Shown here: positions 30,001-39,000 of the stretch, in pieces | Layout: every line of letters starts with the position of its first letter | Position numbering within the stretch: the stretch's first letter is position 1 | NCBI RefSeq assembly: GCF_030384885.1 | Contig: NZ_CP128614.1 | From: Escherichia coli | Lineage (GTDB): Bacteria; Pseudomonadota; Gammaproteobacteria; Enterobacterales; Enterobacteriaceae | Length of the DNA stretch: 64,000 nt | Reading direction: 5' to 3' (one strand) | Made by a program: the position numbers

Positions 30001-33000
30001 ATTCAATTCGTGACTTCAGCAGTTTGGCGACGGCCGCAAAGACATCAACGACCACGGAGTTCCCAAACTGTCTGTAAGCCTGTGTATTGGACACAGGGAT
30101 ACGGAAAACACTTTCCCCGGGTTTATCGAAGCCCATTAGCCTGCTGCATTCACGTGGCGTTAGCATGCGTGGCCGACGGTCCATGTTGTATGTGTTATGG
30201 AAATCAGTTTCTCCCAGTTCATGAGACCAGCCCCGATCAATAAGAATTTCAGATCCGTCTTTCATATAGCGGCTTGAGAGGGTTCTGGTGACACTATTAA
30301 CATTGGAAGGATCTACTAGTCCAAAACCAAAACCATTGCCTTTTGCCGCATGTTTCTTTGCATAGTTGTATAAGTACTCCCAGAGTTTAGGGGAGAGGAT
30401 GTATTTACTATCTACGCTCGGATCCAGTAAATCTGAGAGAGAAGGGCGCTTGTCCGGATAAAAGTCTTTAATGTCTCTCAGAGTAAAACCGTCTTTCAGA
30501 CGTAGGTCGCGGCGAAAACCAATAAGGACGATACGTTCACGGTGCTGGGGTCGGAAATGACGGCCATCGATGACTTTAGGATCATCCGCGCCCGTGCTTT
30601 CGCTGTTTGCGACGTCGTAGCCAAGCTCATCGAGCGTTTTCATGATGATGTTAAAGGTATTACCCTTATCGTGACTCTTCAGATTTTTTACGTTTTCCAG
30701 AACAAAAATTGCAGGTTGTTTTGCCCGGATGATCCTGGCCACATCAAAGAAGAGCGTACCCTGAGTGTCGCACTCGAAACCGTGTTTGCGACCCATAGAG
30801 TTCTTTTTACTGACACCGGCGATGCTGAATGGCTGGCATGGAAATCCCGCAAGAAGAACATCATGATCCGGGATAGAGGCATCGATAAATTTGTATGCCT
30901 CGTCATCAGTAACCTCGGGCCGGTTGCTAAGAGTGATGTCACGGATGTCTGAATTGAAGCGGTGCTCGTTCTCATCGCAATACCAGTTCGCCCGGTAAGT
31001 ACGGCTGGAATAAGTATTCCATTCGCTCGTGAAAAGACATTTACCACCGATGGCATCAAATCCGCTTCGCAGTCCACCTATCCCTGCAAACAGATCGATA
31101 AAGCTAAAGTGCCTGTCCTCATAATCAGCAGGTCGTGAAGGTATTAAAGTCTGTAGATAGCGTCCATCTGCGATACTCAGCTCACAATGCTCAGGTATGC
31201 ATGTAACCTGACGTTTAAGGGATGCACGGGACCAATTACTGCCATTTTCATCATTTAATACCTGAGCCAGATATTTCAGGTCATAAATGGTCGAAGCTGT
31301 TAACAAAGTTTTGTGGATCAGAGATGGTGTTTTATCCACATCATTCAGGTCTGTCTCAAGATCATGAGTGTAACGTTTCATCCAAACTCTCTCAGGAATA
31401 ATATCTTTGAGATAGATTAACACGCTTAATTTGGATTATTTTTTGGTTCAGGTTCTAAATTTATTGTGATTATTCTGCCTTTAAGTTGCAAAAAGATTGG
31501 TTTTAAGCCCGCCCATGAAATAATGACTTGTTAAAATACTGCCTGTAAATAGGCTTGTGGATACATGTCTGTACTCAACAAATCAAGGTGAAATGATGTT
31601 TTTTTTAACAAAGTTACTTTTGCCCATCATGATTGTTGTATTCCCAGTGGCGTCCTGGGGGAACTCAACAACTTTTGAGGCAAAGGTGGTTAAGATTGTT
31701 GACGGTGACACCATAACTGCGTTGGATGCTCAAAACACAACCATCAAAATACGGATGTATGGTATAGACGCTCCTGAATCTAAACAGGCTTTTGGCCAAA
31801 AAGCAAAACAGGCCTTAACCACAGCTATAGCAACTAAAATCGTTACCGTGATAGACCATGGTACGGATATCTATGGCCGTATGTTAGGTACCATCTGGTT
31901 AGATGGATATGATATCAATGCCTCTATGGTGGACAGTGGATATGCGTGGGTTTATCGGTTCGAAGATAACGCCATTGTCCCTGGCTATATCAAATATGAA
32001 TCCGCAGCACAAAAGGAGGCAAAAGGGTTATGGGCAGACACCAACCCTGTCCCACCATGGCAGTGGAGACAGGCAAACGAAAAGCCCAGAAAGGTGAAAG
32101 AGAAGAAATAACCATGATGAAAGAGCCTCATCCGTTACTTCAGTTGGTACTAAACGATTCCGGTCGTCTAACCATGCCTGTTTATTATAGAGATCAACAG
32201 TATTGCCCGACTTGCCTTACAAAGGTGTTGAAGAGTGAGGATGGAAGTTTGGCGCACCTCGGGGAAATAAATCAAAATACATGTAGACCTTCTATTTCAG
32301 TAGTTGTGACAAAAGCAATTATTGAAATGTTATGTGACGGGGAAAAAATATATGTAAATCCAATACGACACCGAGGCCGGGTGCTGGCACCCTCAGTAAT
32401 TTTTTCTCCCGACACTCACACTTTCAAACCGTTTATAAATACAGACTATCAGCCTGTGGGAGCAAACTGGAAAAGTGAAAAGGGATATAAACTCGGTCTG
32501 TTTTATCTCAAAGATCGAGCCAACTCTATCAATAAAGAGGAATTTGATTTCATTGCCGTTATAGACCCTGAGGCAATGCAGAAAGAATTTATTTCGGCCT
32601 GGTCTGAGGTTGATGAAAAAAATCCATTGGAAACGCTGAAGCAGATCTTACGATCTAAAAACAACTCTTCTTTATGGGTAAAATGGCCTGGCAAAATTGA
32701 GCATGCGCAAAAAGGAAATTACAACGAAAATTACTGGTTCGATTATCAATCTGATAATCAGGAAGTGAACTGTACGGTCTCTGTTGTAGGTATCGAAGGT
32801 AACAGTTCCGGTGAGACAATTTATAGATTGCAAACTTTGCTAAAGCGTAAGCTCAATGAATATCAACTGGTTCGGTCTTTAGGGACTATTATGCTTCTTG
32901 ATAATACCGGGAATATGATTCCATCAAACCATCCTTATTTTGAAGTCATCTCAAAAGCATGTATAAATGGAGTGCGTGACTTTGTTCGTCAAAACCCGTG

Positions 33001-36000: not shown

Positions 36001-39000
36001 GTCGTATTAAAATCCTCCTGCGAAAGTGAAATCATCCATGTATTATCTTTATGATAGTCGGTAATATAAATAAAATGAGATGTAAAAGGCGTTGAGTGAT
36101 TGAACTCTCCTAAGTTCCATCCATACTGACTCACTGTATTTGAGCTAAGTTCTTTGTCGGTAATGTTCATAATTCATACCTTTCGATAAAGTCTGTAATG
36201 ATAATTAGCTATCTCAAAGGACCAGAACAACTCTTGAAATAACCACACTCGAAGAATTTATCATATTGAACACCCCTACCTAATAACCTTGCCGACTTAA
36301 TAAATCACAATAGCCCTCCCCTGACATTTTAAAATGCTACTTGAATTTTTGATAGCTTATGGTTGTTTTATGTTCTTTGTGATACGCATATGTCATCTTC
36401 TCTTTCCAGTACCAATCTTGTAGATCCTGCAAGTCTAGCCCATTTTTCTCACGTATGCTTTCGTGTAATTCGCTAAGCGCGAGTTTATCATTAGGTTTAT
36501 AAATGGCTAATTTTTCTTCAAATAAATCCAGCCAACGTTTCCCCATCTTACGACGCAAAACAAACACCATCGTGATAAATGTAATGAAATGCACAGCAAT
36601 TAGTTCCAACTTATGCGATTGCTGACCAGATAAAATTACTATTGTAACAACAGGGATGGCCGTATATAAAGCAATCAAAGCGACCATAAGTTGGTATGGT
36701 TTTTCCCGTATTACCATGTTCATGGGTAAACCAGAGGACGCTACTGCTTGCCAAAATCTTAAAGGGGAGCCCGCAGAATTCGGAAAAAATCGTACGCTAA
36801 GGTTTTCCGGGCATCCGTAAGGGCCGAAACTTCCCGTCTTCCAGTCTGCGGCTCTGCCGCCAGACGTAATCGCCGGTTAGGTTGATGTGCTCCCAGCCCA
36901 GCGGCGACAGGAATTGCAGCAGCTCGCCGTCCACCGGCTTGCCGGCCTCGACCAACCCCTGGGTGGCGCGTTCCAGGTACACCGTGTTCCACAGCACGAT
37001 AGCCGCCGTCACCAGGTTGAGGCCGCTGGCCCGGTAGCGCTGCTGCTCGAAGCTCCGATCCCTGATTTCCCCAAGGCGGTTGAAGAACACCGCCCTGGCC
37101 AGCGAGTTGCGCGCCTCACCTTTGTTCAGGCCGGCATGCACGCGGCGGCGCAGTTCAACACTTTGCAGCCAGTCCAGGATGAACAGCGTGCGCTCGATCC
37201 GGCCCAGCTCGCGCAGGGCCACGGCCAGTCCGTTCTGGCGCGGGTAGCTGCCGAGCTTGCGCAGCATCAGCGAGGCGGTGACGGTGCCCTGCTTGATCGA
37301 GCTGGCCAGGCGCAGGATGTCGTCCCAGTGGGCACGCACGTGCTTGATGTTCAGGGTGCCGCCGATCAGCGGGCGCAACGTCGGGTAGGCTTGCACGCCC
37401 TGCGGCACGTACAGCTTGGTTTCGCCGAGGTCGCGGATGCGCGGCGCGAAGCGGAAGCCTAGCAGGTGCATCAGGGCAAAGACGTGATCGGTGAAGCCGG
37501 CCGTGTCGGTGTAGTGCTCCTCGATCCGCAGGTCGGACTCGTGGTACAGCAGGCCGTCGAGCACATAGGTGGAATCGCGGACGCCGACATTCACCACGCG
37601 GGTGCTGAACGGCGCGTACTGGTCGGAGATATGGGTATAGAACAGCCGTCCCGGCTCGCTACCGTACTTCGGGTTGACGTGCCCGGTGCTCTCGCCCCGG
37701 CCACCCGCGCGGAAGCGCTGGCCATCGGAGGATGAGGTCGTGCCGTCGCCCCAGTGGGCGGCAAAGGCGTGGCGATACTGGTGGTTGACCAGCTCGGCCA
37801 AGGCCGCCGAATAGGTTTCGTCGCGGATGTGCCAGGCTTGCAGCCAGGACAGCTTGGCGTAGGTCAGGCCGGGGCTCGACTCGGCCATCTTGGTCAGCCC
37901 GAGGTTGATCGCATCACCGAGGATTGCGGACAGCAGCAACGTCCTGTCTTTGGCCTCGGCCCCGTCCTTCAAGTGGGTGAAGTGGCGGCTGAAGCCCGTC
38001 CAGTCGTCCACGTCCATCAGCAGTTCGGTGATCTTGATGCGCGGCAGTAACTGGCTGGTTTGGTCGATCAGCGCCTGCGCCCGATCCGGCACCGCCGCAT
38101 CCAGCGGGGTGATTTTCAGCCCTGACTCGGTGAGGATGGCATCGGGCAGCTCGTTGTCCTTGGCCAGGCGGGTGACGGTGGCCAACTGCTCGTCCAGCAG
38201 CTGCAAACGCTCTTCCAGGTACTGGTCGCTGTTCGGGTTGATCGCCAGGGGCAGGGCCTGCTCGCGCTTGAGTGCGGCGAACTTCTCGGCCGGCAGCAGG
38301 TAGTCGTCGAAGTGGCACTGTTGCAAATAGTCGGTGGTGATAAACTTATCATCCCCTTTTGCTGATGGAGCTGCACATGAACCCATTCAAAGGCCGGCAT
38401 TTTCAGCGTGACATCATTCTGTGGGCCGTACGCTGGTACTGCAAATACGGCATCAGTTACCGTGAGCTGCAGGAGATGCTGGCTGAACGCGGAGTGAATG
38501 TCGATCACTCCACGATTTACCGCTGGGTTCAGCGTTATGCGCCTGAAATGGAAAAACGGCTGCGCTGGTACTGGCGTAACCCTTCCGATCTTTGCCCGTG
38601 GCACATGGATGAAACCTACGTGAAGGTCAATGGCCGCTGGGCGTATCTGTACCGGGCCGTCGACAGCCGGGGCCGCACTGTCGATTTTTATCTCTCCTCC
38701 CGTCGTAACAGCAAAGCTGCATACCGGTTTCTGGGTAAAATCCTCAACAACGTGAAGAAGTGGCAGATCCCGCGATTCATCAACACGGATAAAGCGCCCG
38801 CCTATGGTCGCGCGCTTGCTCTGCTCAAACGCGAAGGCCGGTGCCCGTCTGACGTTGAACACCGACAGATTAAGTACCGGAACAACGTGATTGAATGCGA
38901 TCATGGCAAACTGAAACGGATAATCGGCGCCACGCTGGGATTTAAATCCATGAAGACGGCTTACGCCACCATCAAAGGTATTGAGGTGATGCGTGCACTA

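Follow-up and report, generated by a model that had tools for sequence, protein, structure and literature searches.

Did the AT-rich DNA at 31424-36763 of the Escherichia coli sequence analysed here enter its plasmid as a separate block, or does it belong to the plasmid itself? The stretch lies in a window of 64,000 nucleotides (the whole piece of contig NZ_CP128614.1, assembly GCF_030384885.1, that was analysed) and encodes a nuclease of the SNase family, a protein directly downstream of it which we call p298, and a series of small open reading frames (ORFs). An earlier note on this DNA, made from the sequence alone, had described these 5.3 kb as markedly AT-rich compared with both flanks and had taken the compositional shift as a sign of separate acquisition. 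It turned out that the contrast is real, with 38.3% GC in the stretch against 49.7% in 1-31423 and 56.0% in 36764-64000, and that the acquisition is not borne out. The stretch is very probably native and near-universal backbone of IncHI2 plasmids, and its island-like look comes from its neighbours.

The stretch within the IncHI2 backbone

The comparison with related plasmids carries this conclusion. By megablast, the stretch was found in 1163 plasmids of the PLSDB database (673 records at 99% identity or above), and the best matches that we inspected are all typed as IncHI2A, MOBH and MPF_F. The repHI2 gene occurs in 1125 PLSDB records, and its distribution over genera is the same as that of the 1163 carriers of the stretch. 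As the reference IncHI2 plasmid we used the full sequence of R478 (NC_005211), and the window was mapped onto it in three collinear blocks:

26031-33225, equivalent to R478 147143-154337, collinear block with 99.1% identity
33226-34359, equivalent to R478 154868-156001, collinear block with 97.5% identity
35142-36745, equivalent to R478 165579-167182, collinear block with 96.9% identity

Within 152.5-167.2 kb of R478, the methyltransferase gene dcm, the SNase gene, the 298-aa ORF, the small membrane ORFs and the ORFs p135b, p175 and p128 stand in the same order as in the window, with 96.9-99.1% identity. The stretch is thus already known and has been in the sequence databases since R478. Unlike the window, R478 retains 530 bp and hence has separate ORFs of 104, 85 and 77 aa, and it carries 9.6 kb where the window has 782 bp with the ORF p153. 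Homology ends at 36745 (R478 167182), from where R478 runs into a 1111-aa ORF and umuDC and the window into a Tn1721-type end.

The composition of the stretch was compared both with the window and with the R478 backbone. In the window it is the lowest-GC stretch of 5.34 kb (0.4% of segments of the same size are lower), and the boundaries of strongest contrast, 31091-36730, are close to the ends as first described. This contrast arises from the flanks, because the left neighbour is the dcm/DUF1173 block, a backbone part of 47-49% GC, and the right neighbour is a transposon of 62-66% GC. R478 has 45.5% GC overall and 44.3% for the backbone with obvious accessory elements masked, and among 5.34-kb segments of this backbone the median is 44.2% and the 5th percentile 37.7%, so that the GC of the stretch falls inside the backbone distribution, at the 6.5th percentile. 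Similarly AT-rich parts of the R478 backbone are found at parAB (15-20 kb), in the trhI region (36-39 kb) and at 46-51 kb, core functions included. For the dinucleotide signature, delta* (x1000) of the stretch versus the backbone is 44.4, and 24% of backbone segments deviate as much or more; for comparison, the value is 102 for the mer transposon, 68 for ars and 89 for the transposon DNA just downstream in the window.

The same gene order in essentially all IncHI2 plasmids is difficult to reconcile with a horizontally acquired genomic island, that is, a foreign AT-rich block which entered the plasmid as a unit. Such an island would account for the lowest GC of the window and a place in the low tail of the backbone distribution, yet by its dinucleotide signature the stretch is an ordinary piece of backbone, and the core parAB and trhI regions are equally AT-rich. 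It would also fit the DNA downstream of p298, which differs completely between IncH lineages, and the 782-bp piece with p153, a gene with relatives on about 1000 other plasmids; on the other hand, the arm with SNase and p298 is syntenic in IncHI1, in IncHI2 and in relatives of 37-45% identity, and the right boundary was made by a later Tn1721-type insertion. No direct or inverted repeats flanking the stretch and no tRNA genes were found at its ends, and a Pfam scan of its ORFs found no integrase or recombinase domain. The island reading fails because the stretch is uniformly present in IncHI2 backbones with similar composition; we consider it extremely improbable, and as applied to the 5.3 kb as a whole it is refuted.

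In published descriptions, IncHI2 plasmids have a conserved backbone with variable resistance regions at its borders, which contain truncated Tn1721 (PMC9019673). Individual plasmids have insertion sequence (IS) elements or mcr-1 inserted inside the stretch. As an island the stretch is unimportant, since it is ordinary IncHI2 backbone long present in the databases. The lesson is that AT-rich stretches of IncH plasmids are not to be taken as recent acquisitions.

The divergent module and its probably exported nuclease

What does the conserved part of this backbone contain? The left 1.6 kb of the stretch forms an arm of an old module of IncH-type (MOBH/MPF_F) plasmids, because the order of the module is syntenic in IncHI1 and in distant relatives. 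The module is listed below in window coordinates; for its first two genes the RefSeq annotation of identical DNA in plasmid pSTM6-275 was used, whose locus L001 is converted by window = L001 + 19423.

26084-26902, plus strand, DUF4942 protein
26899-28104, plus strand, coiled-coil protein of about 400 aa
28384-29703, minus strand, DUF1173 protein (47-49% GC)
29726-29893, minus strand, 55-aa ORF (47-49% GC)
29954-31381, minus strand, C5 DNA cytosine methyltransferase (dcm), divergent from the nuclease (47-49% GC)
31382-31595, divergent intergenic region between dcm and the nuclease (about 33-36% GC)
31596-32111, plus strand, SNase-type (thermonuclease family) nuclease of 171 aa (PF00565)
32114-33010, plus strand, p298, predicted cytoplasmic orphan protein

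The DUF4942 and coiled-coil genes lie outside the coordinates in which the stretch was first described and are also found in IncHI1 and in metagenome relatives. The intergenic region presumably holds both divergent promoters, a prediction for which the scan did no better than shuffled sequences; promoter and terminator counts equalled those of shuffles (17 against 17.7 promoter sites). An Rfam scan of 31-37 kb gave no match above noise.

The order of DUF4942, the coiled-coil protein of about 400 aa, DUF1173, a small ORF and dcm, with SNase and a protein of about 300 aa on the opposite strand, is common to the IncHI1 plasmids pHCM1 and pBS90R-A_1 and to a hybrid IncHI2A plasmid. When p298 was used in a tblastn search, the matches comprised, besides IncHI2, a second group with identities below 60% (about 427 records), and on contigs with p298 homologues of 37-45% identity the divergent module is the same. 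The divergent orientation of dcm/DUF1173 and SNase is kept in loci L010, L013, L014, L015, L016 and L018. In the relatives of 37-45% identity, the nuclease and p298 genes overlap by 4-8 nt or are separated by a gap of 5 nt, and GC falls from dcm/DUF1173 through SNase and p298 to the downstream cargo (35-44%) in all six relatives. Of the known systems outside IncHI2, the IncHI1 locus (pHCM1/R27 type, dcm-SNase-307-aa) has the same divergent module, with identities of about 75% for the SNase, 52% for p298, 52% for the 77-aa ORF and 35% for p95. It differs in the GC of the SNase/p298 pair, which is 46-47% there and 40% here, and in that a phospholipase-D-family gene and DUF3800 (Tn10 in pHCM1) replace the small-ORF set of IncHI2.

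A part of the arrangement was also seen on the Klebsiella plasmid p23-1 (IncFIB; locus L020, 4859-7215), where DUF1173 is divergent from an SNase gene without dcm or p298, and a gene of the H-NS family follows directly after the nuclease.

The nuclease had been described in the earlier note as a signal-peptide-bearing protein of the SNase type, and this description agrees with what we found. In Pfam the protein is assigned to the SNase family PF00565 with a score of 85.6 bits, where the cut-off is 21, and an E-value of 3.9e-24. Its N-terminus appears signal-like: it is hydrophobic (Kyte-Doolittle 2.26), with an S-W-G cleavage motif that would place the cut between MFFLTKLLLPIMIVVFPVASWG and N, and it contains no lipobox Cys. 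The nuclease aligns to structures of the S. aureus nuclease (E 1e-10) with DGDT, R53, D58, E61, Y93 and R95 in place, where D21, D40, E43, R35, R87 and Y85 of the S. aureus enzyme correspond to D36/D38, D58, E61, R53, R95 and Y93 respectively. The two proteins share the PF00565 domain, the Ca2+-ligand and catalytic residues and a secretion signal (predicted in the IncHI2 protein), while their identity is about 30%, and the IncHI2 protein is Gram-negative and plasmid-borne and has a basic C-terminal tail. It also misses the NCBIfam equivalog cut-offs for NucI and EcnA. All seven aligned plasmid homologues, including those of IncC and Klebsiella, retain the catalytic and metal residues as well as a hydrophobic N-terminus. 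The IncC homologue, 37.6% identical, is likewise a small, predicted-exported backbone nuclease of the SNase family.

Another plasmid protein of this kind is ParB of RP4, an SNase homologue within RP4 parCBA. Unlike it, the IncHI2 nuclease has no adjacent resolvase or par genes, the RP4 side of this comparison being general background; the literature searched on RP4 ParB gave nothing usable. A homologue on a 41-kb plasmid was considered as an RP4-type parB and was ruled out, as it adjoins repA. SNase-family genes are present on more than 5000 PLSDB plasmids, and such genes have been noted as unexplained, beside transfer or establishment genes (PMC8708921, PMC13055273).

Most likely, the IncHI2 nuclease is exported to the Ca2+-containing periplasm and cuts DNA or RNA non-specifically, as its domain and N-terminus suggest. 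Staphylococcal nuclease requires millimolar Ca2+, and periplasmic export is therefore a likely condition for activity. The likeliest role would be to degrade nucleic acid that lies unprotected in the cell envelope (foreign DNA, extracellular DNA, or nucleotide salvage around mating), by which the protein would resemble other nucleases carried by many conjugative plasmids.

How is p298 related to this enzyme? A 299-aa unknown protein had been placed 2 nt downstream of the nuclease; the gap of 2 nt is correct (the SNase stop codon is at 32109-32111 and p298 starts at 32114), but the length is 298 aa, because the 897 nt include the stop codon. The p298 gene is probably translationally coupled to the nuclease gene. 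The protein has a zinc-ribbon-like N-terminus with a CPTC...C motif, followed by beta-rich domains, and its alignment contains the further conserved motifs FIAVIDP, GETIY and LLLDNTGN. It was unmatched in four libraries of hidden Markov models (Pfam, NCBIfam, PADLOC and PHROGs), where the SNase alone among all ten ORFs of the stretch had a match, and no fold match for p298 was found. The family is tiny: a set of 5.8e9 proteins holds 34 clusters of it, and one of 1.84e9 holds 28 representatives.

The earlier note had suggested a test of this downstream gene for an immunity function. In such a nuclease/immunity (or inhibitor) pair, p298 would neutralise the nuclease in the cytoplasm before export. 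Co-occurrence does not support this and weakly disfavours it, for strict pairing fails and each partner is found without the other. SNase homologues are widespread (more than 5000 plasmid records), and the two non-IncH examples examined have no p298 next to the nuclease, being followed by an HU-family gene in IncC and by H-NS in Klebsiella p23-1; conversely, distant p298 homologues (about 25% identity) in Rts1 and in a Klebsiella plasmid have no adjacent nuclease. Searches of Pfam, PADLOC and PDB showed no resemblance of p298 to an inhibitor already known. Besides, an SNase that needs millimolar Ca2+ should be inert in the cytoplasm, so an immunity protein would be unneeded, and S. aureus Nuc is not known to have one. 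Because co-occurrence is not strict and in view of the Ca2+ argument, immunity is less likely than a co-regulated accessory function, and we consider it very unlikely. The pairing of SNase with p298 is specific to IncH-type plasmids; p298 would be co-translated with the nuclease and remain in the cytoplasm, more probably as an accessory or regulatory partner than as an inhibitor.

The linkage of methyltransferase and nuclease, which is kept across IncH plasmids, raises the question of whether the whole divergent module might be an establishment or anti-defence block used on entry into a new host, with the small membrane ORFs as defence or exclusion cargo. In plasmids of the Bacillus pLS20 family, SNase-like genes are found among establishment genes beside methylases (PMC8708921), and some relatives of the present locus carry SMODS/S_4TM defence-type genes or type VI secretion system (T6SS) genes right after p298. 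However, an exported nuclease should be unable to act on cytoplasmic restriction systems, and the genes of the module run in both directions, unlike one-directional leading regions. The PADLOC models show both sides: the SNase has a weak match to an SNc-containing candidate (E 3e-11), but none of the other ORFs is matched. We regard an establishment block of this kind as unlikely. It is quite unlikely, too, that SNase and p298 form an IncH-specific two-component system, in which p298 controls, chaperones or neutralises the exported nuclease and the pair, together with the methyltransferase, DUF1173 and DUF4942, serves establishment or the exclusion of competing DNA; if true, a module carried by more than 1500 clinically important resistance plasmids would thereby have a function. 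What the SNase-p298-dcm module does for IncH plasmids is a question of some interest.

The AT-rich small-ORF zone

Why does the DNA downstream of p298 differ so much between lineages? The region at about 33.0-36.7 kb is an AT-rich zone of small ORFs, which serves as the cargo and insertion zone of the plasmid family. The features in this zone are as follows, with membrane segments judged by hydropathy:

33058-33465, plus strand, p135a, 135 aa, an in-frame chimera by ORF comparison with R478
33511-33765, plus strand, p84, two transmembrane (TM)-like segments, identical in R478
33803-34090, plus strand, p95, two hydrophobic segments; an alternative TTG start at 33749 gives 113 aa
34160-34357, plus strand, p65, membrane-like; RefSeq calls this 198-nt version, and an alternative start at 34127 gives 76 aa
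34360-35141, plus strand, lineage-specific segment of 782 bp with most of p153 (ORF 34694-35155)
35185-35592, plus strand, p135b, 135 aa, unannotated predicted cytoplasmic enzyme
35643-36170, minus strand, p175, conserved unknown at the right edge of the variable zone
36337-36723, minus strand, p128, two N-terminal TM-like segments; ratio of non-synonymous to synonymous differences (pN/pS) versus R478 of 0.31

Four small membrane proteins and several further unknowns had been reported here. The unknowns were read correctly and small membrane proteins are present, but by hydropathy the number of small TM-like ORFs is five (p135a, p84, p95, p65 and p128).

Two events distinguish the zone from that of R478. 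The first is a deletion of 530 bp relative to R478 and ST2-type plasmids (window 33225/33226 corresponds to R478 154337/154868), by which an 85-aa membrane ORF was lost. Because this deletion fuses two ORFs in frame, p135a is a chimera, which consists of the two-TM N-terminus (56 aa) of the 104-aa ORF of R478 and the conserved 77-aa soluble ORF of R478; no microhomology of note was seen at the deletion junction. The 77-aa ORF is conserved with 52% identity in IncHI1, 62% in L014 and 56% in L015. The second is the 782-bp segment, which is absent from R478 and ST2-type plasmids. The same position is occupied by 2.4 kb in p22504-1 and by 9.6 kb in R478, where SulP, USP, ars and ISNCY are found together with two small ORFs and a serine protease. 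Homologues of p153 with 43-50% identity are found on about 1000 mostly Klebsiella plasmids.

Divergence from R478 is uneven, being 0.2-0.5% for dcm, SNase and p298 and 5-7.6% for the two ORFs that flank the replaced segment; p65, for instance, differs at 7.6% of nucleotides with a pN/pS of 0.62. Across the ORFs, pN/pS is 0.3-0.8, calculated from few substitutions. Such uneven divergence fits recombinational mosaicism between IncHI2 lineages and not the import of a whole block.

Among the unknowns, a transglutaminase/papain-like fold is predicted with good confidence for p135b, with Cys33, His73 and Asp88 as the triad. In the model C33 lies at the N-terminus of a helix, and it is kept in six of seven sequences (the seventh looks frameshifted), while H73 and D88 are invariant. 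Compared with transglutaminase/papain-like enzymes (Atu2299 2hly, TglA, SseI and LapG), p135b is minimal: it has 135 aa, shows 12-18% identity and is without a Pfam match. Its very small family comprises 16 clusters among 5.8e9 proteins, and sequence searches of PDB with p135b and p153 gave noise alone. As for the other ORFs, p95 is 35% identical to an ORF of 99 aa that occupies the corresponding position in IncHI1 (L013 10113-10412) and in L014, and p175 is 97% identical in R478 and 38% identical in the metagenome relative L016/L017, where it stands beside an ORF of about 1114 aa as in R478. The right limit of the zone is formed by p175 and the ORF of about 1100 aa, which are adjacent also in L016.

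The DNA after p298 depends on the lineage: it is Tn10 in pHCM1, a PLD-family gene with DUF3800 in IncHI1, and ars and SulP in R478. The zone is stable within IncHI2, save for the 530-bp deletion and the 782-bp replacement, and different in every more distant relative. Two metagenome relatives of the module were also seen. In L015, T6SS sheath and baseplate genes (VipA, VipB, VasE and DotU) follow right after the p298 homologue at 8640-12942. In L018, a Big-domain protein with SMODS and S_4TM (CBASS-like) genes takes this place at 6976-12939. One and the same slot has therefore taken up cargo of very different kinds. A recurrent cargo or insertion zone (ars, Tn10, Tn1721 with the multidrug-resistance region, mcr-1, IS elements) is in this way placed just downstream of a conserved nuclease operon, and the conserved, uncharacterised module of nuclease, p298 and methyltransferase, together with the orphan of predicted transglutaminase fold, is flagged in plasmids of a family by which mcr-1, mcr-9 and extended-spectrum beta-lactamase genes are spread.

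Expression of the zone is probably low and condition-dependent, because IncHI plasmids encode their own H-NS and Hha; in R478 these are at 111343-111747 and 59417-59629.

Several points weigh against the reading of the locus as native backbone with an exported nuclease and a coding cargo zone. Few parts of the backbone are as AT-rich as the stretch, which lies at the 6.5th percentile, and an ancient acquisition, followed by amelioration of the signature, could also have produced it. The signal peptide was judged by hydropathy and the -3/-1 rule alone, and the literature searched on IncHI and plasmid nucleases contained no functional study of the IncHI nuclease. For p84, p65 and p128, no homologues outside IncHI2 were seen in the loci compared, and the substitutions in these small ORFs are too few to prove coding. 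Finally, it is from composition alone that the zone, at 36-38% GC, would be counted as the type of DNA silenced by H-NS-family proteins.

The right edge and other features of the window

Where does the backbone stop on the right? The stretch had been said to end 40 bp before a Tn1721-type inverted repeat (IR), and the distance is confirmed, since the last ORF has its start codon at 36723 and the repeat begins at 36764:

36764-36801, Tn1721-type terminal IR of 38 bp, GGGGAGCCCGCAGAATTCGGAAAAAATCGTACGCTAAG, which interrupts the backbone

This IR belongs to the neighbouring transposon and not to the stretch. A resistance region of the Tn1721/Tn21 type was inserted 40 bp beyond the last backbone gene. 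In this region, a truncated tnpA of the Tn1721/Tn21 type is kept as a 529-aa ORF (36797-39134 region), cut by IS26 (38314-39133). More copies of IS26 are located at 42510-43329 and 61582-62401, and a relative of IS26 with about 76% identity is at 56753-57571.

On the left side, window 26026-26040 is the empty target site of a Tn7-like sil/pco element of about 32 kb in R478. The R478 element, TGTCCGAGG...CTCTACACA (about 114733-147142), is flanked by a 5-bp duplication GGTCC, and the window has one copy of the target, read as GTGTCC/TACC with one single-nucleotide polymorphism. In pSTM6-275 and other plasmids with an identical nuclease region, pco is present at the 26026-26040 site.

Further upstream, window 1-17332 is the IncHI2 tellurite-resistance region, which is 97.7% identical to R478 63994-81323. 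At 20000-21700, a toxin-antitoxin pair of the hipBA type lies in DNA that is almost without a match in R478.

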